Assembly: GCA_043803945.1 (NCBI GenBank) | Contig: JAZDJN010000080.1 | Span: 1 to 64,000 of the forward strand | Length of the DNA stretch: 64,000 nucleotides | Direction of reading: 5' to 3' | Source: a bacterium | GTDB lineage: Bacteria > Bacteroidota > Ignavibacteria > UBA10030 | Shown here: in pieces, positions 3,706 through 64,000 of the stretch | Numbering within the stretch: position 1 is the first letter of the stretch | How the letters are laid out: every line of letters begins with the position of its first letter | Program-made: the position numbers and the translations under genes | Notes under the pieces: generated by a model | The model's input: only the letters and a program-made list of their open reading frames with translations | What the model was told of the DNA's origin: nothing | The model's database searches: none

Positions 3706-5751
3706 TTGCATATGAAGGATGAATTCAAACCACTGACGTACGAAGAGGCCGACCACAAGGCCGAATCGATACTCGCACTCATGACGCTGGATGAAAAGAT
3801 TGCCCTTGTCGGCGGCGAGAGAGGATTTTTCATTAGACCGTTGCCAAGGCTGAATCTTCAAGAAGTCTATATGACCGATGCGACACAGGGTATAAACATC
3901 AGAAAACAATTTCGAGATGTTGATTTATCTGAATATAGCCTGGAACAATCGACGGCGTTCCCTTGCCCACTTCTCTTAGCCTCCACATGGAACCCCGGCC
4001 TCTGCTACCAGTATGCTGAAGCTATCGGTGAAGAATGTCGGGCCGGCGGGATTGGAATTTTACTTGGACCGGGTATGAATAGCTATCGTCATGCTCAATG
4101 CGGGCGCAACTTCGAGTACTTTGGAGAAGATCCTTTTCTCCGATCACGAATGATTGAAGCGTACGTGAAGGGAGTACAAAGCACCGGCACCATAGCTACA
4201 CTAAAGCACTTTGTCGCAAACAATACCGAGTTCTATAGGAGAAAGAGCAACTCAATCATCGATGAGCGAACGTTACACGAGATCTATTTACCCCCCTTCA
4301 AAGCCGGGATCGATGCAGATGCCAAAGCCGTGATGACTGCATATAACCTGCTCAACGGAGAATGGTGCGGGCAAAGTGAACGAGTGATCAACAACCTGCT
4401 GAGAACAGAGATCGGATTCAAATGGCTGGTCATGACAGACTGGTGGTCTGTCGATAATGGTGAACTCCTCGCAACCTCGGGTCAAGATTTAGAAATGCCC
4501 TATGCAGCCGCTCTCAACGATGCAGAGACGCTCATCAGTGAAGGGAGTGTAACCGTTGAAGAGATCAATAGAATGGCAGGAAGCATTCTACGAACATACT
4601 TTGCCATGAAACTCGATGAAAGAAAGAGAGAGATCCCCCAACCCAAGATGTACGAGATCCATGAGTCGGTAGCATTGCAGACGGCACGCGAAGGAATTGT
4701 GCTGTTGAAAAATGATGGTGACATTCTCCCTCTCGGTGAAGGGACAGAATCTATTTTATTAACAGGAGAGTATGTTGAGACACTGGCGGCAGGCAGCGGT
4801 TCTGCGGCGGTAAAGGGATATCATAACAGGCTAATGCTTGATGAGCTCAAGAAACAATTTGGCGAGAGAATTTTTTATCGTAAGAATCCAACACCTGAAC
4901 AAATCAGGTCTGCAGAAATTGTGCTCTGCAATGTCGGAACGATCGACAGTGAAGGCTGGGACAGACCATTTGAACTGCCGGCGGAACAGGAGAACAGAGT
5001 CAACGTATGCGTTGAGAATAATCCCAACACCATTGTGATCGTCACGTCAGGGGGCGGTATCCGGATGACGAACTGGCATGACAAGGTGAAGGCCCTCATA
5101 TATGCATGGTATGGAGGTCAGGTCGGCAATAAGGCACTCGCTGAAATTATCACGGGAATAACCAATCCATCAGGAAAATTGCCGATCACAATTGAACGAG
5201 AATTCTCAGATTCACCGGCATACGGCTACATTCCCGATGGAGAGGTACTCTACACGGGATGGCACGATGAAGAAGAAAAAGTACATCCAGTGTATGATAT
5301 CCATTACCATGAAGGAGTGTTTGTCGGATACCGCTGGTATGAGAAGAACAATATTGAGCCGTTGTACCCTTTCGGGCATGGTCTGTCCTATACGACGTTC
5401 GACTATAGCGATCTCGCCGTCTCAAAGGAAACGTTCCATGCCAGCGACATCCTGACCGTAAGTCTTACCGTTACGAACTCTGGAAGAACCAAGGGGTTGG
5501 AAACGGTTCAGTTATATGTTCAGGATAGTGAATGCTCTCATCCGCGCCCAATCAAAGAACTTAAAGGATTTGCCAAAGTGGAGTTGGAAGCAGGAGAGAG
5601 CAAGTCTATTTCATTCGAACTCGATCAAACAGCGTTTTCATTTTGGAATCCGGAAGCAAAGAATTGGACTGCAGAACTGGGAAAGTTTGTTCTTCACATT
5701 GGTTCATCCTTACAGAACCTCATGTTGAACAAGGAGATAGAGATACTCTGA
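3706..5751 (+). CDS. GH3 beta-glucosidase with C-terminal Fn3-like domain
   Basis: GRNFEYFGEDP, KHF, VMTDW nucleophile, YPFGHGLSYT, ELKGF. Confidence 0.92.
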   Translation: MHMKDEFKPLTYEEADHKAESILALMTLDEKIALVGGERGFFIRPLPRLNLQEVYMTDATQGINIRKQFRDVDLSEYSLEQSTAFPCPLLLASTWNPGLCYQYAEAIGEECRAGGIGILLGPGMNSYRHAQCGRNFEYFGEDPFLRSRMIEAYVKGVQSTGTIATLKHFVANNTEFYRRKSNSIIDERTLHEIYLPPFKAGIDADAKAVMTAYNLLNGEWCGQSERVINNLLRTEIGFKWLVMTDWWSVDNGELLATSGQDLEMPYAAALNDAETLISEGSVTVEEINRMAGSILRTYFAMKLDERKREIPQPKMYEIHESVALQTAREGIVLLKNDGDILPLGEGTESILLTGEYVETLAAGSGSAAVKGYHNRLMLDELKKQFGERIFYRKNPTPEQIRSAEIVLCNVGTIDSEGWDRPFELPAEQENRVNVCVENNPNTIVIVTSGGGIRMTNWHDKVKALIYAWYGGQVGNKALAEIITGITNPSGKLPITIEREFSDSPAYGYIPDGEVLYTGWHDEEEKVHPVYDIHYHEGVFVGYRWYEKNNIEPLYPFGHGLSYTTFDYSDLAVSKETFHASDILTVSLTVTNSGRTKGLETVQLYVQDSECSHPRPIKELKGFAKVELEAGESKSISFELDQTAFSFWNPEAKNWTAELGKFVLHIGSSLQNLMLNKEIEIL

Positions 5752-6561: not shown

Positions 6562-7329
6562 TCAACTGCCGAGCAAGTATTGAATTTTGACAAAGTACTG
6601 CCGGGCTGTCGTGGCAAAACCATTGGGTTCGTCATAATCCAGAAAGTCGTTCGTGATACCGGCATAGAAGGTAGTGAAAGCGTTCAACTTATAGTTAAAG
6701 AGGGGATAGAGATTGAGCGATTTGTCGAAGCTGTTATATTGTGCAATCGTCCGGAAGAATATCTCAGGGGTAAATTGGTAGATACCCACTATCCGGTAAA
6801 TATTGCCGTCATAGAGAAGTTCGCCGGATGCATCCTTCGAGAGCCGTGCACGGGAATAGGAGAGATTGAGTTGAAGCTTCGATGTGGGTTTCAGGGTGAC
6901 TGTTCCGCTGAAATTATGGCCACTCCCCTTTGCCGGTGAAGAAGAGCGGTAGATGAATTTTCCAGCCTGACCGTTCATCGACAGTGAGAGTTCATTCCAG
7001 GGCTGGGCATTCACGAAAAAGAGAAGTCGCCGAATATCGTCGAACCATACGCCGCGAAACATCTCATCATTGATGAGCAGATAATCCACCTGAACCTGCG
7101 TCTGCCCTTTCAATGTGAAATAGACACCCGGCTGAATTTCATAGGCGAGCTGGATTGGCTTTGCCTGCTTCCACAGCGGGTCGTCGAGTTTCCCGGTTAA
7201 TTGGAGAGGCCTGGGAATACGAACAGTCTGAAAGGCGGGTTTGACATCCTCCGTTGCCTGGAAAGCAATGGCAGGAGAACTCACGACTCCAAGCACGATC
7301 ATGAGACATTGAGCTATCCGTACAATCAT
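6562..7329 (-). pseudogene. CBM9-like/DUF5916-type outer-membrane protein with large in-frame deletion
   Basis: N-terminal GKLDDPLW..EIQPG joined directly to C-terminal beta-barrel strands ending YFVKIQYL; far shorter than expected for the family. Confidence 0.55.
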
Positions 7330-7737
7330 GGTCAACTCCTTGTGATTGTGGCAGGGTTAACGATTGGATTCTCGGCACAACAAACCAATCTTCCTTACGG
7401 ATATCCTCTACAGAATGTTGAGATTCTTCCACGAATCGTGTTATCGTGTGACAAACAGGCTTTTTTCAGACACGAACAGAGGGGGGTGGTTCCCTTGTCG
7501 TTTTCAATTTCAGCAGGCCGTGCCTGAATACGGTGAGCATTTTTTGCATGAACACTGATCGCTTTTGCTGCATCGTTGAAGAGAATCATCGAGGCAGGTA
7601 ACACTACGAAGTTGAATCCTGGGATGGGATCAACGCTCGAAGAAAGTTATGTACGAAATCCTGGTGCGGTCACACTGCTCTTGGTGACACCATAAGGGAG
7701 CGCGGAGCGGAATCTCTTCAAACCCGAACCGAGACCG

Positions 7738-8334
7738 TTACTTTCCAAGAAATTCCCTGAAGCCGTTTTTCTTCGCAATGGTCGAATAGTTCTTCTCGAT
7801 GCGCTTCACGTATTGCAGTGTTTCATCGCTTCTCCATCGATTGACTTTCGGTGCAATAGACTCAATGCTCTCCCACGCCATATAATTCAGTTGCTCTTCC
7901 TTTGCTCTATCCTGAGCACGAGAGATTGTTCCACGTCCAGCATTATAGCTGCCGAACATAAAACTCAACCGATGATCCGTATCCAGAATTTCTTTCCAGG
8001 ATTTCCAGAGTTTCCTGTTATACATAATTCCCGCTGCGATATTCCAGCGCGGCTCATTGATCTCCCGAAGTTCCGGATTTTCGCTCTGGATTTCCTTGTA
8101 GGTGTTCGGCATTAACTGCATAAGGCCCATGGCGCCGACCCAGCTTTTTGCTGCCGAATCAAGATTGCTTTCTGCCATGGCCTGTGCTTTGAATATCCGC
8201 CAGTCATAGCCAACACCGAAGTAGCGCTTTGAGTAGGCACGGAAATAGTCATCATAACGGTTTGCACTGCGCTGACCGAACACTGCTCCGGCACAACACA
8301 CTACGAGAAGGGTGAGCATAATGCGGCTGCTCAC
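7738..8334 (-). CDS. Lytic transglycosylase (SLT domain, MltF-like)
   Basis: AES catalytic motif, [20 protein letters not shown]; signal peptide. Confidence 0.88.
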
Positions 8335-8534
8335 TTTAATGAACCTCCAATGATCATGGCGATAGAAATGAACAACCCGGCGATAAAGATCGCCACAGCG
8401 ATGTTGCCATTTTTCAACTCGGCTTCAAAATCGATCTTTGGGGAAAGTTTATCAAACACCTTATAGGAGAGGAACATCAATACAACTCCAAGGGCCGCAT
8501 AAAGAAAATTGATACCGATAATTGTCCAATCCAT
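8331..8534 (-). CDS. DUF350-type small membrane protein
   Basis: Two TM helices around EL..GNIAVAI; stop overlaps the start of the SLT gene. Confidence 0.75.
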
Positions 8535-8625
8535 AGTGACTCCTTACGTTGTTTTATATCCTTATTCTTATTTTGAATCTCGTTTAATCGATGTTTCTTT
8601 GCTACACCTCTTCCACCGATCCCGG

Positions 8626-9321
8626 TTACTCCGGTTGATCGAGATTGAGCACCGGTAATCGTTGTTCCGGCGGTAGCGATTCATCATCCCCGGTAATTCT
8701 AAACGGCTTCGGGTGATAATAGGCATAGAACGCGAAGGCGACACCCGCAATCAGCGAGCCGATGCTGATGAGCAATCCGAGAAAATAGAAGAGGTCTGCA
8801 ACATCGCCGGCGGCATCGAGCATATTCCATCTCGTGAAGAGATTCCACCAATCGTGACCAGACCTGTGTCCACCAAGCAACGGTAATTGCCGTACAGGAG
8901 CATCCCTCATATAGAGACTCACATCGAGCATGTTCGTTCCGACCCAGAAGAGTGCAAACGGCGCCACGACGGTCGACCGTTTTCTTAATGCGATACCGAA
9001 CGAGATCAGAGGGAACATGATTTGCCAGAACGATCCACCCAGCAACTGAAGCGTTCTGCCAAAAAACATAAAGAGGCCATGCCCGCCTTCATGGAGGAAC
9101 AGAAAGATTCCATTGCGAATAATTAACAGCAGAAAAGGCCACGGTTCACCGGGCTTGTACTCATAAAATATTGTTGCTGCCTGATAGAGATAGAGTGTCA
9201 GGATTGCATACATCCCCAGCTTCAGCGAGATCGGCCCGAAGCGGTGGACCGCATCCAAATCCTCCGGTGAGAGTGGTTTTCTGAGCTTGATGATTTTCTT
9301 CTTTTGGAGGTCGAGTGCCAT
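8626..9321 (-). CDS. Membrane protein with HExxH motif (M50-like)
   Basis: LHEGGH, HDW, multiple TM segments. Confidence 0.6.
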   Translation of the reverse strand: MALDLQKKKIIKLRKPLSPEDLDAVHRFGPISLKLGMYAILTLYLYQAATIFYEYKPGEPWPFLLLIIRNGIFLFLHEGGHGLFMFFGRTLQLLGGSFWQIMFPLISFGIALRKRSTVVAPFALFWVGTNMLDVSLYMRDAPVRQLPLLGGHRSGHDWWNLFTRWNMLDAAGDVADLFYFLGLLISIGSLIAGVAFAFYAYYHPKPFRITGDDESLPPEQRLPVLNLDQPE

Positions 9322-58539: not shown

Positions 58540-61500
58540 ATGATTGAGACAATACAGAAACAAATCTTTTCAACTGAACAATTCCAGAAGCTCCGGGCGG
58601 CAGCGACAGGACACACAACGACCGAGCCGATCCAGATTACTGGTGTGAACGGTTCGTTGATGGCATTTTTAGCTGCATTTCAATTCCACGAGCGGCATTC
58701 CCAGGTTGTTCTCGTTGTCTCCGATGATAACAAATCGGAACAACTCCGTGACGACTGTGCTCTGCTCTGCGGCGATTCCGCAGTCCGGCTGTATGCCCAC
58801 GGCTCTGAACACAAAGCGGCACTGCTTGATATGACAGCTCCGGTGTCGCAGATCGAAACCCTGAAGGCTCTGACCAATAACAGCCAGGTCATTGTCATCT
58901 GCTCTGCAGAAGCTCTTGTCAGACAAATTCCACTGCCGAAAGAGTTCATCGCGAGATCCATTGAACTGGAGACGGGTAAAGACTATCCCTTTGAGACAGT
59001 ATTACAAACGCTCGCAACGTGGAGTTTCGAACGAAAGGATTTTGTTGAAGAGTATGGCGACTATGCTGTGCGTGGAGGGATCCTGGATATTTTTCCTTAT
59101 GTCGGCGAGAATCCTATTCGAATTGAATTTTGGGGCGATTCAATTGAATCAATCCGGGAGTTTGATGTCCTCTCACAGCGCTCGATTCGGGAATTACAAT
59201 CGGTAAGTATTGTTGCGAGTTTGGCAAGCTCCTCGCCCGATCAAGAATCAGGATCAACAACTCATCCGCCGCATTCTACCGCTTCTCTCTTCGACTACCT
59301 GAAGCCAAATGCACTGGTTATCATCGACGAGCCTCTCCTCATTCAAAAAGAAATCGACGAGCTCTTTCACGAAGGGCTTCAGCACATCCACGATTGGCGT
59401 CATCTGGAACAGGAATCCAAACGCTTCCAAATCATTGCTCATTCGACTTTTAATAGCCAATCGGCCACGATCGATTTTCGTTCCACGCCGCAGCCGCCCG
59501 TTCACGGCACTATTAAACTTCTCCTCCACCATCTTTCACGCTATACTGCCGATGGATGCTCTTCCTGGATTGCCTGCGATAGCGAGGACGAAGCGAAGCG
59601 AATTCAGGAGTTGATCGAAGAGGAGCTTACCACACCAGACGCACCTCAACCGGGTGAAGAATCACACTCCGCCATTCAACAATTGCCAATCATTGACTAT
59701 TCCATTCTCCAGGAAACTTTTCATTCCGGATTTGTGTATCCTCCAGCCAATCTGGTTCTCCTTACCGAGCATGAAATTTTTGGACGGTTGAAACGACGTG
59801 GCACTGCTCGAAAAAAGAGGTTTAAGGGATTCAGTCTCAAAGAGGCACATCAACTGCAGCGCGGTGATTATGTGGTTCACGTTGACCATGGCATCGGAAA
59901 ATTCACCGGACTGCAGAAGCTGAAAATCCATGGCGTTGAACAGGAAGTGATGCGGGTAAACTATGCCGAGAATGATGTGCTGTACGTCAATCTGAATTTT
60001 GTGAACCGTGTCCAGAAATATGCTTCGCAGGAAGGGCATGTCCCCAAGCTTTCCAAGCTCGGTGCGCCCGATTGGGACCGGTTGAAGTCAAAGGCACGCA
60101 AACACATTCAGGATATTGCGCGGGACCTTATTGCACTTTATGCACGGAGAAAGCTTGAGCAGGGATATGCCTTTGCACCCGACACACACTGGCAGAAAGA
60201 GATGGAAGCTTCATTCATGTATGAGGATACTCCCGACCAGGCAAAGGCAACGATTGATGTGAAGCTTGATATGGAGCAATTGTCGCCAATGGACCGCCTT
60301 ATCTGCGGCGATGTCGGGTTTGGCAAAACCGAAGTCGCCGTACGGGCTGCGTTCAAGGCTGTTATGAGCGGCAAACAGGCAGGCATTCTGGTACCGACAA
60401 CAATTCTTGCCCAGCAGCATTACAATACCTTCATTGACCGTCTTGGACGGTACTCTGTTCGTGTTGAGTCACTCTCACGATTTAAATCGAAGTCGGAACA
60501 AAAGGCAATCCTGGCCGGCCTGAACGATGGGAAAGTTGATATCCTGATCGGAACGCATCGATTGCTCTCAAAGGATGTCGAGTTCAAGAATTTTGGACTG
60601 CTCATTATCGACGAAGAACATCGGTTCGGTGTCTCTGCGAAGGAGAAGCTTCGGCGTCTGCGGGCAACGGTCGACACGATGACGCTTACGGCAACACCCA
60701 TCCCCCGCACGCTACAGTTTTCCCTGATGGGTGCGCGTGATCTTTCGATCATCAATACGCCGCCGCGTAACCGGCTGCCGATCATAACAGAGATTGCTCA
60801 ATTCGAATTTCCACTGGTTCGCGAGGCCATCCTCAAAGAGCTCCACCGCGGAGGCCAGATTTATTTTATTCATGACAGGATTCACGATATAGAAGAATGG
60901 CAGACCGTGCTTTCCCTCAGAATTCCCGAAGCCCGATTCCATGTTGCCCATGGCCAGATGAAGGGGCATGAATTGGAAAAGGCAATGATGGATTTTCTTG
61001 AAAAGAAATTCGATGTCCTGCTCTGCACCAAGATTATCGAGTCAGGAATCGATATTCCAAGCGTCAACACAATTATCATCAATCGTGCCGACCGGTTTGG
61101 GCTGGCTGAGCTTTATCAACTGCGCGGACGCGTGGGCCGCTCGAATGAACAAGCCTATGCCTATCTGCTGACCCCGCCGTTATCCAGTCTGCCGCGACAA
61201 ACATTGCGAAGGCTTTCGGCTATCCAGGAATTTACCGAGCTGGGTTCCGGATTTAATCTTGCAATGCGTGATCTGGAGATCCGCGGTGCCGGCAACCTGC
61301 TCGGCGCTGAGCAGTCAGGATTCATACTGGAGATGGGGTTTGAGATGTACCAACGCATTGTGGAAGAAGCGGTAGCGGAGCTGAAAGAAAAGGAATTTGC
61401 AGGGACCTTTGAAGGAGAGGCGGGAGATGGTAGAAGGGAAACGGTAGAAGGTAAACGAGAAAAAGAGACGATTATTGAAGCGAACATCGAGGGCTACATT

Positions 61501-61971
61501 CCTGATCTCTACATTGAATCCGATGCCGAGCGGCTGGATTTCTACCGGCGGTTGTATCGAGTTCACACGCTTGAAGATGTTCAATCGATGCGGGAAGAAT
61601 TGCGTGACAGGTTCGGCGAGTACCCTGAGGAGGTTGAGAATCTCTTTGGCATCGTTGAACTGAAAACCATCGCCGCAAAGCTCGGTTTTATCAAAGTCGA
61701 ATTACAGCAGGATCAGTTGAAGCTGCACTTCCCTCCATCAGAAACAAAAGAGTTTTATGAACGGTGGGATGGAACAACAGCTCCCTTCCAGGCAATCATG
61801 GCAAAAGTAACGGAGTTAAAACAATACCGGGCACACCTGAAGCAGGATGGGAAACAGTTGAAGCTGGTAGCAAGAATAAAGCCAAGTGAAAAGCCGGCAG
61901 AGCGGCTGGGGGATGCGAAGTATTTCTTAACGATGCTGCTGGCAACGCTTTCAGAAACAATTACCCATTGA
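58540..61971 (+). CDS. mfd: Transcription-repair coupling factor Mfd
   Basis: GDYVVH.DHGIG, GDVGFGKTE, DEEHRFG, TATPIPR, QLRGRVGR, DLEIRGAGNLLG. Confidence 0.97.
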   Translation: MIETIQKQIFSTEQFQKLRAAATGHTTTEPIQITGVNGSLMAFLAAFQFHERHSQVVLVVSDDNKSEQLRDDCALLCGDSAVRLYAHGSEHKAALLDMTAPVSQIETLKALTNNSQVIVICSAEALVRQIPLPKEFIARSIELETGKDYPFETVLQTLATWSFERKDFVEEYGDYAVRGGILDIFPYVGENPIRIEFWGDSIESIREFDVLSQRSIRELQSVSIVASLASSSPDQESGSTTHPPHSTASLFDYLKPNALVIIDEPLLIQKEIDELFHEGLQHIHDWRHLEQESKRFQIIAHSTFNSQSATIDFRSTPQPPVHGTIKLLLHHLSRYTADGCSSWIACDSEDEAKRIQELIEEELTTPDAPQPGEESHSAIQQLPIIDYSILQETFHSGFVYPPANLVLLTEHEIFGRLKRRGTARKKRFKGFSLKEAHQLQRGDYVVHVDHGIGKFTGLQKLKIHGVEQEVMRVNYAENDVLYVNLNFVNRVQKYASQEGHVPKLSKLGAPDWDRLKSKARKHIQDIARDLIALYARRKLEQGYAFAPDTHWQKEMEASFMYEDTPDQAKATIDVKLDMEQLSPMDRLICGDVGFGKTEVAVRAAFKAVMSGKQAGILVPTTILAQQHYNTFIDRLGRYSVRVESLSRFKSKSEQKAILAGLNDGKVDILIGTHRLLSKDVEFKNFGLLIIDEEHRFGVSAKEKLRRLRATVDTMTLTATPIPRTLQFSLMGARDLSIINTPPRNRLPIITEIAQFEFPLVREAILKELHRGGQIYFIHDRIHDIEEWQTVLSLRIPEARFHVAHGQMKGHELEKAMMDFLEKKFDVLLCTKIIESGIDIPSVNTIIINRADRFGLAELYQLRGRVGRSNEQAYAYLLTPPLSSLPRQTLRRLSAIQEFTELGSGFNLAMRDLEIRGAGNLLGAEQSGFILEMGFEMYQRIVEEAVAELKEKEFAGTFEGEAGDGRRETVEGKREKETIIEANIEGYIPDLYIESDAERLDFYRRLYRVHTLEDVQSMREELRDRFGEYPEEVENLFGIVELKTIAAKLGFIKVELQQDQLKLHFPPSETKEFYERWDGTTAPFQAIMAKVTELKQYRAHLKQDGKQLKLVARIKPSEKPAERLGDAKYFLTMLLATLSETITH
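61723..61942 (+). repeat. Direct repeat copy A (mfd 3' coding segment)
   Basis: 220 bp matching 63392-63611; 61741-61871 identical to 63410-63540. Confidence 0.92.
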
Positions 61972-62049
61972 TCTATCTCCCTTTGCATTGGACGGAGTGA
62001 ATGAATTGTAATTCCTTCGCCATTTCAATATATTTATTCAAGCAATCGA

Positions 62050-62934
62050 ATGAAAAAGGAGATAATAATATATTCACAATTCTCGGAGGAGACCTGGATC
62101 CAATTTCTTGAATCCAAACGGCTTCAGAAGAATTATATTATAGCATTACTCGAGATTGAGATTGACCTACAGTTTATCCAGACATTTCAAATTGTTTCCC
62201 TTGCCTGTCTTATTGAGGAATATTCTCAAGCTGGTATTCCAATTCGTTTTATAAGAAACAATTCGCTTGCAGATGAATATTTGAGATACATTCACTTCTT
62301 TGACTACTGGACACAGGGATTCGATAGGAATGCCTTCACTCGTTCTGGAAAAAATACCACATTGGCTCTTTGGAAGATTGATCAGAGCAGGATTACCACA
62401 TATGCAGATGAATCGCAAAAGTACTTTGAGAATTTATTCTTCATAGGTAAAGACCTCTCTTCGCTTCACATTGCATTGATGGAGGTGTTCAACAATATTT
62501 ATGATCATGCCCAATCGGCAATAGAAGGGTTTGCCTTGACTCAATATTACCCCAAAACACAACGGATGAATATTGCCATTTGTGACTTCGGGGTGGGAAT
62601 TCCGACAAAGATCAATACAATTTGGGCGAAACAATCGCGAAAGCCAATGAGCGATCAAGATGCATTACGTGCCGCTTTTTTCAATCGCTTATCAACACAA
62701 ACAACTCCACAGAACAGAGGTTTTGGACTTTCCAACTTGTTGGGAAACATTCGGAACATCAAAGGCGATTTGAGTGTTTATTCCAATAGAGCGATGATTC
62801 ATTTCATCAATAGCAATGTGAACTACCGTGGATTAACAGCATATTTGCAAGGGACTTTGGTTCGCTTTTCATTCGATCCAAACAACTTACCCGAGATCGA
62901 ACCAGCAATTGACAATGAGGAGTATTTTTTCTAA
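62050..62934 (+). CDS. HATPase (GHKL, anti-sigma kinase-like) protein
   Basis: EVFNNIYDHA N-box, ICDFGVGI G1, RGFGL G2. Confidence 0.8.
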   Translation: MKKEIIIYSQFSEETWIQFLESKRLQKNYIIALLEIEIDLQFIQTFQIVSLACLIEEYSQAGIPIRFIRNNSLADEYLRYIHFFDYWTQGFDRNAFTRSGKNTTLALWKIDQSRITTYADESQKYFENLFFIGKDLSSLHIALMEVFNNIYDHAQSAIEGFALTQYYPKTQRMNIAICDFGVGIPTKINTIWAKQSRKPMSDQDALRAAFFNRLSTQTTPQNRGFGLSNLLGNIRNIKGDLSVYSNRAMIHFINSNVNYRGLTAYLQGTLVRFSFDPNNLPEIEPAIDNEEYFF

Positions 62935-62952
62935 GCTATAGATGTTGAATTT

Positions 62953-63258
62953 ATGAATGAGAGAATCACAGATATTGATCTTATGCAAGCCTCGCAGGGG
63001 ACTTCGACAAACGCCCAGGGGTACGCGTTGTACGTAGTACTGAAGCAGTCCATGCTCAATGATGGAAAAATTCGCCTTTCCTTGAAAGGTGCTTCCCCTA
63101 TGTCCTCTTCCTTTTTGAATTCTTCCTTGGGGGAGTTGATAGATGAGTTTGGCATTGACCGGGTAAAATCCTCGCTCTCACTGGTGAATTATACAGCTTC
63201 ACAAGCAAGAATATTGAAAGAGTATTTAACCACCTACCAGAAATATGCTAAGAAGTAA
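62953..63258 (+). CDS. STAS-like (DUF4325-type) protein
   Basis: QG..LY, I.LSLKG..MSSSFLN..LG.L. Confidence 0.8.
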   Translation: MNERITDIDLMQASQGTSTNAQGYALYVVLKQSMLNDGKIRLSLKGASPMSSSFLNSSLGELIDEFGIDRVKSSLSLVNYTASQARILKEYLTTYQKYAKK

Positions 63259-63281
63259 AATATTTTATCTACGATATAAAC

Positions 63282-63306
63282 AAAAGCCGCTTCCAAAGCG
63301 GCTTTT
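63282..63306 (+). terminator. Rho-independent, possibly bidirectional terminator
   Basis: AAAAGCCGCTT-CCA-AAGCGGCTTTT. Confidence 0.8.
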
Positions 63307-63391
63307 GTGTTTGATGAGTGTACCGCTGCGATGAAGCTCAACTACGGGTCTAACATCTCTTCGGGAGCGGAACTCCCACAGAGATCGGGAT

Positions 63392-63622
63392 CTGCACTTC
63401 CCTCCATCGGAAACAAAAGAGTTTTATGAACGGTGGGATGGAACAACAGCTCCCTTCCAGGCAATCATGGCAAAAGTAACGGAGTTAAAACAATACCGGG
63501 CACACCTGAAGCAGGATGGGAAACAGTTGAAGCTGGTAGCGAGAATCAAACCGAGTGAAAGACCGGTTGAACGCTTGGGGGCTGCGAAGTATTTGTTAAC
63601 GATGCTGCTGGTAGGCCAATGA
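63392..63622 (+). repeat. Direct repeat copy B: orphan alternative mfd C-terminus
   Basis: Open frame LHFPP..KYLLTMLLVGQ* with no start codon of its own. Confidence 0.9.
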
Positions 63623-63660: not shown

Positions 63661-64000
63661 TTAGCAACATAACCTTTGCCTAAGCAGGTTCCATTCTTTT
63701 CCCTTAGTCATTATGAAAAGGCATTTTCCGTCACTTTCTGCTTCCCAAAACTGTCCGATAAATCGTTTTTCTTTGGAATCATCATTACTAAATGCTACCT
63801 CAGATTTGTATTCTACGACGAGAATTTTACCACTTTTAAGTTTAACAATAAAATCCGGATAAAATTTATCTGTTGATGTCTGTAGCCAGAACGTATGCAG
63901 TTCTTGCCTGTCGAGGTTTCTGATCCAGAATTCGACATTTGAATGGCTGTCAATAATATAAGCACATTCAGATTCTTCGCCATTCATATCACCCACCAAT
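63661..64000 (-). CDS. C-terminus of a type III restriction Res-like endonuclease (truncated by window edge)
   Basis: WIRN..FWLQTSTDKFYPDFIV..VEYK PD-(D/E)xK motif. Confidence 0.75.
   Translation of the reverse strand, partial: LVGDMNGEESECAYIIDSHSNVEFWIRNLDRQELHTFWLQTSTDKFYPDFIVKLKSGKILVVEYKSEVAFSNDDSKEKRFIGQFWEAESDGKCLFIMTKGKEWNLLRQRLCC

Follow-up and report, generated by a model that had tools for sequence, protein, structure and literature searches.

In the window analysed here, namely the first 64 kb of a 101-kb contig (JAZDJN010000080.1, C80) from a draft Ignavibacteria genome of 118 contigs (GCA_043803945.1, G000), the 3' end of the repair gene mfd is present as two direct copies enclosing a two-gene cassette, which encodes a GHKL ATPase and a small DUF4325 STAS-like protein. 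We consider it an evenly balanced proposition that this cassette was integrated without a recombinase, through homology anchored in the mfd end, and that the swap of the Mfd tail was a by-product of that event. Homology-anchored integration is proposed because the homology of the repeat is one-sided and mosaic, and because a mosaic gltX gene lies beside members of the same cassette family (loci L040 and L042). Integrases or transposases are the usual explanation for genomic islands; this locus constitutes a clean natural case of a small accessory unit set in the end of an essential-type repair gene, with the gene intact and no recombinase left, and its unstudied module shows related footprints elsewhere. 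If such events were general, conserved gene ends would serve as landing pads for recombinase-free gene flow. Of wider interest is the repeated association of a kinase/STAS-like pair with conserved gene ends, which flags this widespread and uncharacterised pair as a target for functional study.

Repeat anatomy and inserted DNA at the mfd 3' end

The full-length Mfd displays the Pfam domains TRCF, DEAD, Helicase_C, UvrB_inter and CarD_TRCF_RID, and its gene ends in the first copy (A) of a direct repeat of 220 nt, found at 61723-61942 and 63392-63611 with an offset of 1669 nt and 94% identity. Whole-genome blastn returned exactly two copies of this block. The 14 mismatches between the copies are unevenly placed, with one at 61740 and the rest within 61872-61926, i.e., 1 in 149 nt versus 13 in 71 nt (Fisher p 1.9e-6, with the split point picked after inspection). 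The reading frame is kept in both copies, and 12 codons differ, corresponding to 8 synonymous changes and 4 replacements; 7 of the synonymous codon changes fall in the far end of the repeat, where 13 of 71 nt differ. Homology begins abruptly at 61723/63392 and peters out past 61942/63611, about 30 nt before the stop of copy A; thus, homology on one side and an abrupt non-homologous junction on the other are both present at mfd. The identical core of 131 nt is likely the site of the crossover or of later homogenisation. The features of the region are as follows:

58540-61971, + strand: mfd, full-length, 1143 aa (TIGR00580, 997 bits), ending in copy A and tail A
61723-61942, + strand: repeat copy A, mfd codons 1062-1135, a region across which the Mfd of relatives aligns
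61741-61871, + strand: identical core, 131 nt, no mismatch between copies A and B
61872-61971, + strand: diverged tail A, 13 of 71 nt different from B, then unrelated sequence to the stop
61972-62049, + strand: AT-rich spacer of 78 nt by base composition, with one promoter-like match in the promoter scan
62050-62934, + strand: GHKL ATPase, 294 aa (weak Pfam HATPase_c match, fold match, 78 homologues found)
62953-63258, + strand: DUF4325 STAS-like partner, 101 aa (PF14213, E 8e-7)
63280-63312, + strand: intrinsic terminator, 13-bp hairpin plus U tract (-19.3 kcal/mol, z -5.8)
63313-63391, + strand: spacer up to the abrupt copy B junction, no mfd likeness in the mfd frame
63392-63622, + strand: repeat copy B, tail B and stop, a 5'-truncated mfd relic by repeat alignment and translation
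63661-64000, - strand: 3' end of a Type III res gene that extends to contig position 66276 (PADLOC REase_III, E 1.5e-143; Pfam)

An earlier sequence-only reading of this DNA had described the repeat, its offset and its identical core, as well as a last stretch of about 70 bp with silent and replacement changes that stays in frame and yields alternative tails; the alignment bore out both descriptions. It had further noted a cargo richer in AT than mfd, carrying its own terminator, devoid of recombinase and followed by a type III gene, all of which agrees with our analyses of base composition (GC 0.33-0.43 in the cargo versus 0.46-0.57 in mfd), hairpin folding, Pfam domains and PADLOC matches. 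No recombinase was recognized by Pfam among the two cassette genes; furthermore, no PF00589 match is present on the 101-kb contig, serine recombinases not having been searched genome-wide, and the 10 PF00589 matches of this genome all lie on other contigs.

We compared 98 mfd loci whose 3' end is complete, 19 of them from species-representative genomes and 79 from metagenomes, the closest relatives displaying 70-75% Mfd identity over the C-terminal 283 aa. Past the Type III genes, our genome carries GIY-YIG, MarR, FMN-reductase and YceI genes, and in family-level relatives mfd is followed by GIY-YIG (G018), by MarR and FMN_red (G021) or by YceI (G007). Among the 83 relatives with at least 600 nt of sequence downstream of mfd, one of these conserved neighbours lies within 400 nt in 44 (GIY-YIG in 36, MarR in 7, YceI in 1), and none of them was found in 30. 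Because the mfd of relatives adjoins GIY-YIG or MarR, which here stand 6.8 kb further on, the stretch 61972-68764 is by this comparison inserted accessory DNA, made up of two units, one formed by the cassette and tail A and the other by the relic, its tail B and the Type III genes. Likewise, since the GIY-YIG gene of relatives adjoins mfd, gene order presents the Type III pair as a second, separate accessory unit at the mfd junction.

The proposal of the sequence-only reading that mfd is a hotspot for accessory or defence cargo found no support, given the 44 relatives that keep a conserved neighbour and the presence of only three distinct accessory inserts at the junction between mfd and GIY-YIG/MarR among the 83. 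These comprise a 762-aa DNA methyltransferase-like gene with a CapP-like M78 peptidase gene and a helix-turn-helix (HTH) gene (L098, peptidase/HTH at 4155-5139); a gene of unknown kind with the same M78 peptidase/HTH pair (L121 and L124; L121 7568-8552, L098 and L121 both being metagenome relatives); and PIN, HTH and 595-aa HATPase_c_3 proteins (L108). The junction takes up defence-like cargo occasionally but rarely, and never with tail duplication. Accessory cargo between mfd-tail copies, which had been expected in related genomes, was absent from all 98 mfd loci, where no second tail copy was found and L164 gave a 26-nt match only. The search for further tail copies was equally negative in the genome and across 61972-70000, an interval in which relaxed tblastn detected no third mfd relic.

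Regarding the tails themselves, A and B (22-28 aa) gave no Pfam match, the swapped Mfd segment lies beyond the Pfam TRCF match, and Mfd tails vary in both length and sequence among relatives. When compared with our two variants, the tails of relatives scored better against A in 49 of 82 cases and against B in 17, with 16 ties, a comparison biased by the greater length of tail A. Excision with tail swapping had also been predicted: if the two cores recombined, the cassette would as a mechanical consequence be lost and tail B retained, and no sign was obtained that the swap is functional. Because the tails vary among relatives and lie beyond the TRCF match, no function is suggested for it.

Several other observations concern the same junction. 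Promoter-like sites are no more numerous in the region than in the shuffled expectation. The Type III restriction-modification (R-M) pair is complete (contig 63661-67972; res of 871 aa, mod of 529 aa) and separates the mfd relic from the GIY-YIG gene, the mod gene extending to contig position 67972 (PADLOC MTase_III, E 3e-172). The 790-nt spacer between mod and GIY-YIG (contig 67973-68764) contains several GC-rich palindromes or hairpin-like stretches. Further, a canonical STAS protein (PF01740, ~112 aa) is encoded by the first gene past mfd in 12 of 81 relatives scanned (L125, L129, L130, L133, L135, L140, L143, L144, L147, L148, L149 and L215), a curious parallel to the STAS-like gene of the cassette in the window.

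Distribution and footprints of the cassette family

A single-protein contig scan found no relative, and an alignment-based scan gave 73 loci that encode relatives of the ATPase, mostly from Bacteroidota and none of them beside mfd. The distribution is patchy: within the order to which the window belongs, close orthologues are present in 2 of 277 genomes (G000 and G030). Neighbours across the 73 loci are heterogeneous, with two recurrent settings. In one of these, the cassette directly follows conserved housekeeping genes, such as a fused icmF-like mutase (L024, L026, L033, L051, L075), gltX (L040, L041, L042, L068, L071), sufD, secA, mnmE, pth, rpoD and more. The other consists of R-M, defence or integrase islands, with HsdR/HsdS at L029, L073 and L085, Type ISP at L035, ResIII at L094, MvaI/BcnI at L074, D12 methylases at L057 and L076, AbiV plus an integrase at L061, integrases at L069 and L084, a reverse transcriptase at L055 and nSTAND3-Mrr at L059. 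In 46 of 64 loci the cassette and its upstream neighbour share one orientation, and in 22 the neighbour ends at most 84 nt away. The icmF-P450 junction that holds the cassette in L024 is occupied in one relative (G366:C542 ~6963-9048, partly L237) by another insert, ~2.1 kb long, in which neither GHKL nor DUF4325 was matched.

At gltX, Flavobacterium relatives that lack the cassette show empty sites. When the gltX genes of L040 and L042, from two Flavobacterium genomes, were aligned with those of 7 cassette-less relatives, identity was ~85% over columns 1-810 and 52-66% over columns 811-1530; in the latter columns the cassette-less genes share 70-90% among themselves, and L040 versus L042 yields 54-83%. 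From this drop past column 810 we conclude that, as far as sequence comparison indicates, the cassette of L040 and L042 came with ~700 nt of foreign gltX end via a crossover inside gltX. The mosaic gene (L040 4417-5952) is full-length, with an intact anticodon-binding domain. This mosaic-anchor analysis covered the gltX group only, in which L041 shares the locus coordinates of L040, L071 displays no identity break and appears native, and L068 is without close relatives.

Duplicated gene ends similar to that of mfd were found at two further loci. At L065, a sugar-transferase gene has its 3' part copied beyond the cassette (242 nt, 90% identity), the copy having its own short tail; no further copy of this repeat exists in that genome, and no empty site could be shown, the relatives being too distant. 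L022, in genome G030, is the closest homologue (61% amino acid identity, from the same taxonomic order as the window), and there a DUF4159 gene has its 5' end, promoter and ~40 initial codons included, duplicated over 149 nt. The mosaic is mirrored with respect to mfd, with 2 of 53 nt differing by the abrupt junction and 24 of 93 at the far end (a post hoc split), and the DUF4159 gene is single-copy and without cassette in 30 of 30 relatives. The window and L022 show no conservation in the non-coding ends of their cassettes. As an additional feature of this locus, the contig begins (L022 1-79) in a 79-nt repeat present in at least 9 places of G030 with 92-99% identity; this is probably mobile or otherwise repeated DNA at which the assembly broke off, immediately before the duplicated gene start.

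Across the family, flanking direct repeats were detected by tight blastn at 5 of 55 testable loci, versus 5 of 500 random sites of G000 and 5 of 324 same-locus sites, and by tblastx at 11 of 63 loci versus 6 of 147 controls. Such repeats are somewhat enriched around the family; as a family hallmark they obtain partial support, and the class is mixed. Repeats also flank the cassette at L037, L043, L053, L057 and L059, and a search of the 11 repeat-bearing loci against Rfam revealed two tRNAs and nothing else. At L048 the repeat proved to be a terminator of 46 nt, and at L045 it sits just past a tRNA-Leu gene. The repeat of L074 (5741-5923 and 7424-7606; G041) belongs to a dispersed intergenic family of 183 nt with many copies, also in related genomes, and with no Rfam match; at L064, the cassette stands between two copies of a SRAP-family gene (4597-5529 and 7310-8240) of 84% identity, a multi-copy gene whose downstream copy is broken.

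Fold and predicted binding of the protein pair

The ATPase was modelled from an alignment of 31 homologues with a predicted local distance difference test (pLDDT) score of 85.7. Residues ~101-279 display a SpoIIAB/RsbW-like fold, that of anti-sigma serine kinases with STAS antagonists as their partners. The best fold match was SpoIIAB (1l0o_A; Z 11.3, root-mean-square deviation 2.8 over 134 residues), followed by 8ih8_C (Z 9.2), RsbW (6m36_A, 9.0), the RsbW domain of Rv1364c (8.8) and SiaB (7.9), and Foldseek concurs. A small alpha/beta domain makes up the N-terminal 100 residues; a kinship of this domain with DUF4325 was considered and rejected, the hhalign probability of 0.45% not being significant. 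Residues E145, N148, N149, D179, G181, G183, G224 and G226, which we take to be N-box or G-box residues, are invariant in the family alignment, as are Ser53 and Asn56 of the partner in 34 sequences. A similar small open reading frame with a conserved SSSFLN motif comes after the ATPase gene at almost every locus with sufficient sequence: a downstream frame is present in 67 of 73 loci, and most of these show the motif by eye.

The predicted ATPase-partner complex scored 0.70, versus 0.00 for the best control. Of 157 solved complexes 116 attained this mark, as did 2 of 215 mismatched pairs; the result may partly reflect likeness to the solved SpoIIAB-SpoIIAA and RsbW-RsbV complexes. Runs shared at least 81% of their contacts, with a partner pLDDT of at least 85, and the predicted interface places partner residues 48-53 against kinase residues 137-148 and 225-229. 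The modelling supports the view that the ATPase and the DUF4325 protein bind each other; they probably form a partner-switching pair, in which kinase-substrate chemistry would take place at Ser53.

Neither a sigma factor nor a PP2C phosphatase gene is present within the 1.67-kb unit. With regard to defence, PADLOC gave no full-length component match of a known system on the cassette and nothing for the DUF4325 partner; its sole match aligned ATPase residues 137-271 with positions 138-266 of the 1750 of the DrmA model (E 1.2e-12). A literature search on STAS/HATPase defence systems gave, among the records listed, none on a GHKL-DUF4325 pair; DUF4325 itself is mentioned in three papers of a search listing.

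Proposed routes of integration, rival explanations and known systems

According to our preferred explanation, a horizontally acquired two-gene cassette would enter the 3' end of mfd through host homologous recombination anchored in that end, with no dedicated integrase needed, either by a single crossover of a circularised fragment carrying an mfd end or by a one-ended homology-facilitated event on replicating DNA. Integration would duplicate mfd codons 1062-1135; upstream, the copy would complete an mfd that is intact but chimeric in its tail, and downstream the other would be left as a truncated relic; tail A may then have come in with the cassette, and the alternative tails would be a by-product of integration and not a device. 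In more general terms, the simplest account of the duplications, the mosaic gltX and the clean insertion at L024 would be a spread of the module by host homologous recombination, with the adjacent conserved gene as anchor: homology on both sides would lead to replacement, with a clean or mosaic anchor gene, and homology on one side only to duplication of the anchor gene end. The sequence-only reading had likewise proposed entry into mfd by single crossover, with cassettes that carry an mfd tail; insertion, the lack of an integrase and the one-sided mosaic repeat speak for such an entry, whereas recurrent mfd-tail cassettes failed to appear (0/98 mfd loci, 0/73 family loci). The observed outcome is a duplication and not a deletion, which suits a single crossover better than homology-facilitated illegitimate recombination (HFIR) proper (cf. 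the available part of PMC3240628).

Several points weigh against this explanation. The arrangement is known from a draft assembly, and our searches found no same-genus relative, empty site or donor, the closest Mfd C-termini standing at the 70-75% given above. If a diverged donor had entered by a plain single crossover, mismatches would be expected along the entire repeat, and because of this the identical core needs gene conversion, earlier cycling or in-situ duplication: both cores might come from the recipient, by duplication in situ up to the crossover; previous cycles within one population might have homogenised the mfd piece of the element; or gene conversion might have followed integration. 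Further, HFIR normally yields deletions, as stated in the available text of PMC3240628. Within the family, the majority of loci show no duplication, L071 has a native gltX, the flanking repeats of L074 and L064 are dispersed multi-copy elements, and L024 is a clean insertion without duplication, which replaces a 14-nt spacer between the icmF stop and the next start.

The anatomy suits the attachment (att) pair of an integrase equally well, and a tyrosine integrase acting in trans, or the decayed remnant of an island that has lost its integrase, constitutes a possible if doubtful alternative, in which the 220-nt block is the att identity block and the element-borne part of that block replaces the mfd end. 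An integrase-less unit of this kind is termed a cis-mobilisable element. The layout at mfd is the canonical one for such events, with a sharp boundary, an identity block and a diverged replacement end that reaches the stop codon; the PF00589 matches on other contigs would provide candidate enzymes, and an integrase is the nearest downstream gene in 3 of 73 family loci (L061, L069 and L084). At icd and tRNA genes, identity blocks that reach ~250 bp are accompanied by a replacement gene end, according to the available portion of PMC10111431. On the other hand, neither the interval between the repeats nor the 101-kb contig as a whole contains an integrase, the assembly has no third block copy that could represent attP, the cassette family occupies many unrelated targets, the site is in use at none of the 98 mfd loci, and the replaced gltX segment of ~700 nt (L040, L042) far exceeds an att block. 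It is rather improbable that the assembled path is not one molecule, i.e., that it merges a tail-B chromosome with a 1669-bp circle or tandem array, or a mixture of strains. The fragmented draft and the exact 131-nt repeat, which permits both graph solutions, leave room for this; however, the junction 63391|63392 joins cassette-side DNA to mid-mfd and requires a duplicated or circular form, and comparable duplications occur in independent assemblies (L065, L022). Because that junction exists only in a duplicated or circular form, the insertion is real on either path.

Two further proposals ascribe a broader meaning to the locus. A dedicated hotspot at mfd with tail swapping as a selected function, in the manner of the orphan C-terminal arrays of Rhs and contact-dependent inhibition (CDI) systems, is highly improbable: a conserved core followed by a variable tail is present twice, three distinct inserts were found at the mfd junction among 83 relatives, and Type III R-M genes lie beside the relic, but a second tail was present at 0 of 98 mfd loci of relatives, 0 of 73 family loci lie beside mfd, the genome has two copies only, and the tails are short, without domain and variable among relatives. 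A more far-reaching view, which we regard as unlikely, holds the GHKL-DUF4325 pair to be a minimal recombinase-free hitch-hiker on core genes, installed by host RecA alone and often bearing a substitute gene end. The module would persist and cross species by sitting at the ends of highly conserved genes, RecA-mediated replacement would leave a mosaic anchor and a RecA-mediated single crossover a gene-end duplication, and the footprints at mfd, the sugar-transferase gene and the DUF4159 gene would reflect the lifestyle of the module and not coincidence.

With respect to known systems, the protein pair resembles SpoIIAB-SpoIIAA and RsbW-RsbV in combining a GHKL-fold kinase with a small STAS-like partner whose conserved serine lies at the predicted interface. 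It differs from these modules in the extra 100-aa N-terminal domain of the ATPase, in a partner that is DUF4325 and not a canonical STAS (PF01740), in the lack of a sigma factor or PP2C phosphatase in the unit, and in its patchy and solitary distribution. Unlike Rhs/CDI arrays, the mfd locus presents tails without functional domain, in two copies and with no orphan series. As for integrating elements, e14 and phage 21 are of the icd type. The mfd locus is similar to prophage and island integrations with a replacement gene end (icd in Escherichia coli, tRNA genes), in which, as described in the available part of PMC10111431, the target stays intact and direct repeats of up to ~250 bp, one sharp boundary and a substitute gene end are found; in contrast to those islands, the unit analysed here has no integrase, consists of 1.67 kb and two genes, and belongs to a family with many targets.

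A parallel to a single crossover is provided by E. coli conjugation, where recircularised DNA produced duplications of 109-950 bp of the lacZ end without a dedicated recombinase (available text of PMC3240628), a range that accommodates our 220 nt; that system was a laboratory construct with identical homology, unlike the present repeat, which is 18% diverged at its far end and would stem from a natural, unobserved event. The locus also recalls the HFIR proposed for effector-immunity arrays of the type VI secretion system and for Rhs orphans, in which, in the available portion of PMC5361080, one homologous upstream anchor is combined with a non-homologous far end and the displaced relic remains downstream; insertion there is usually coupled to deletion, whereas at mfd a duplication is seen and no toxin/immunity logic is evident.

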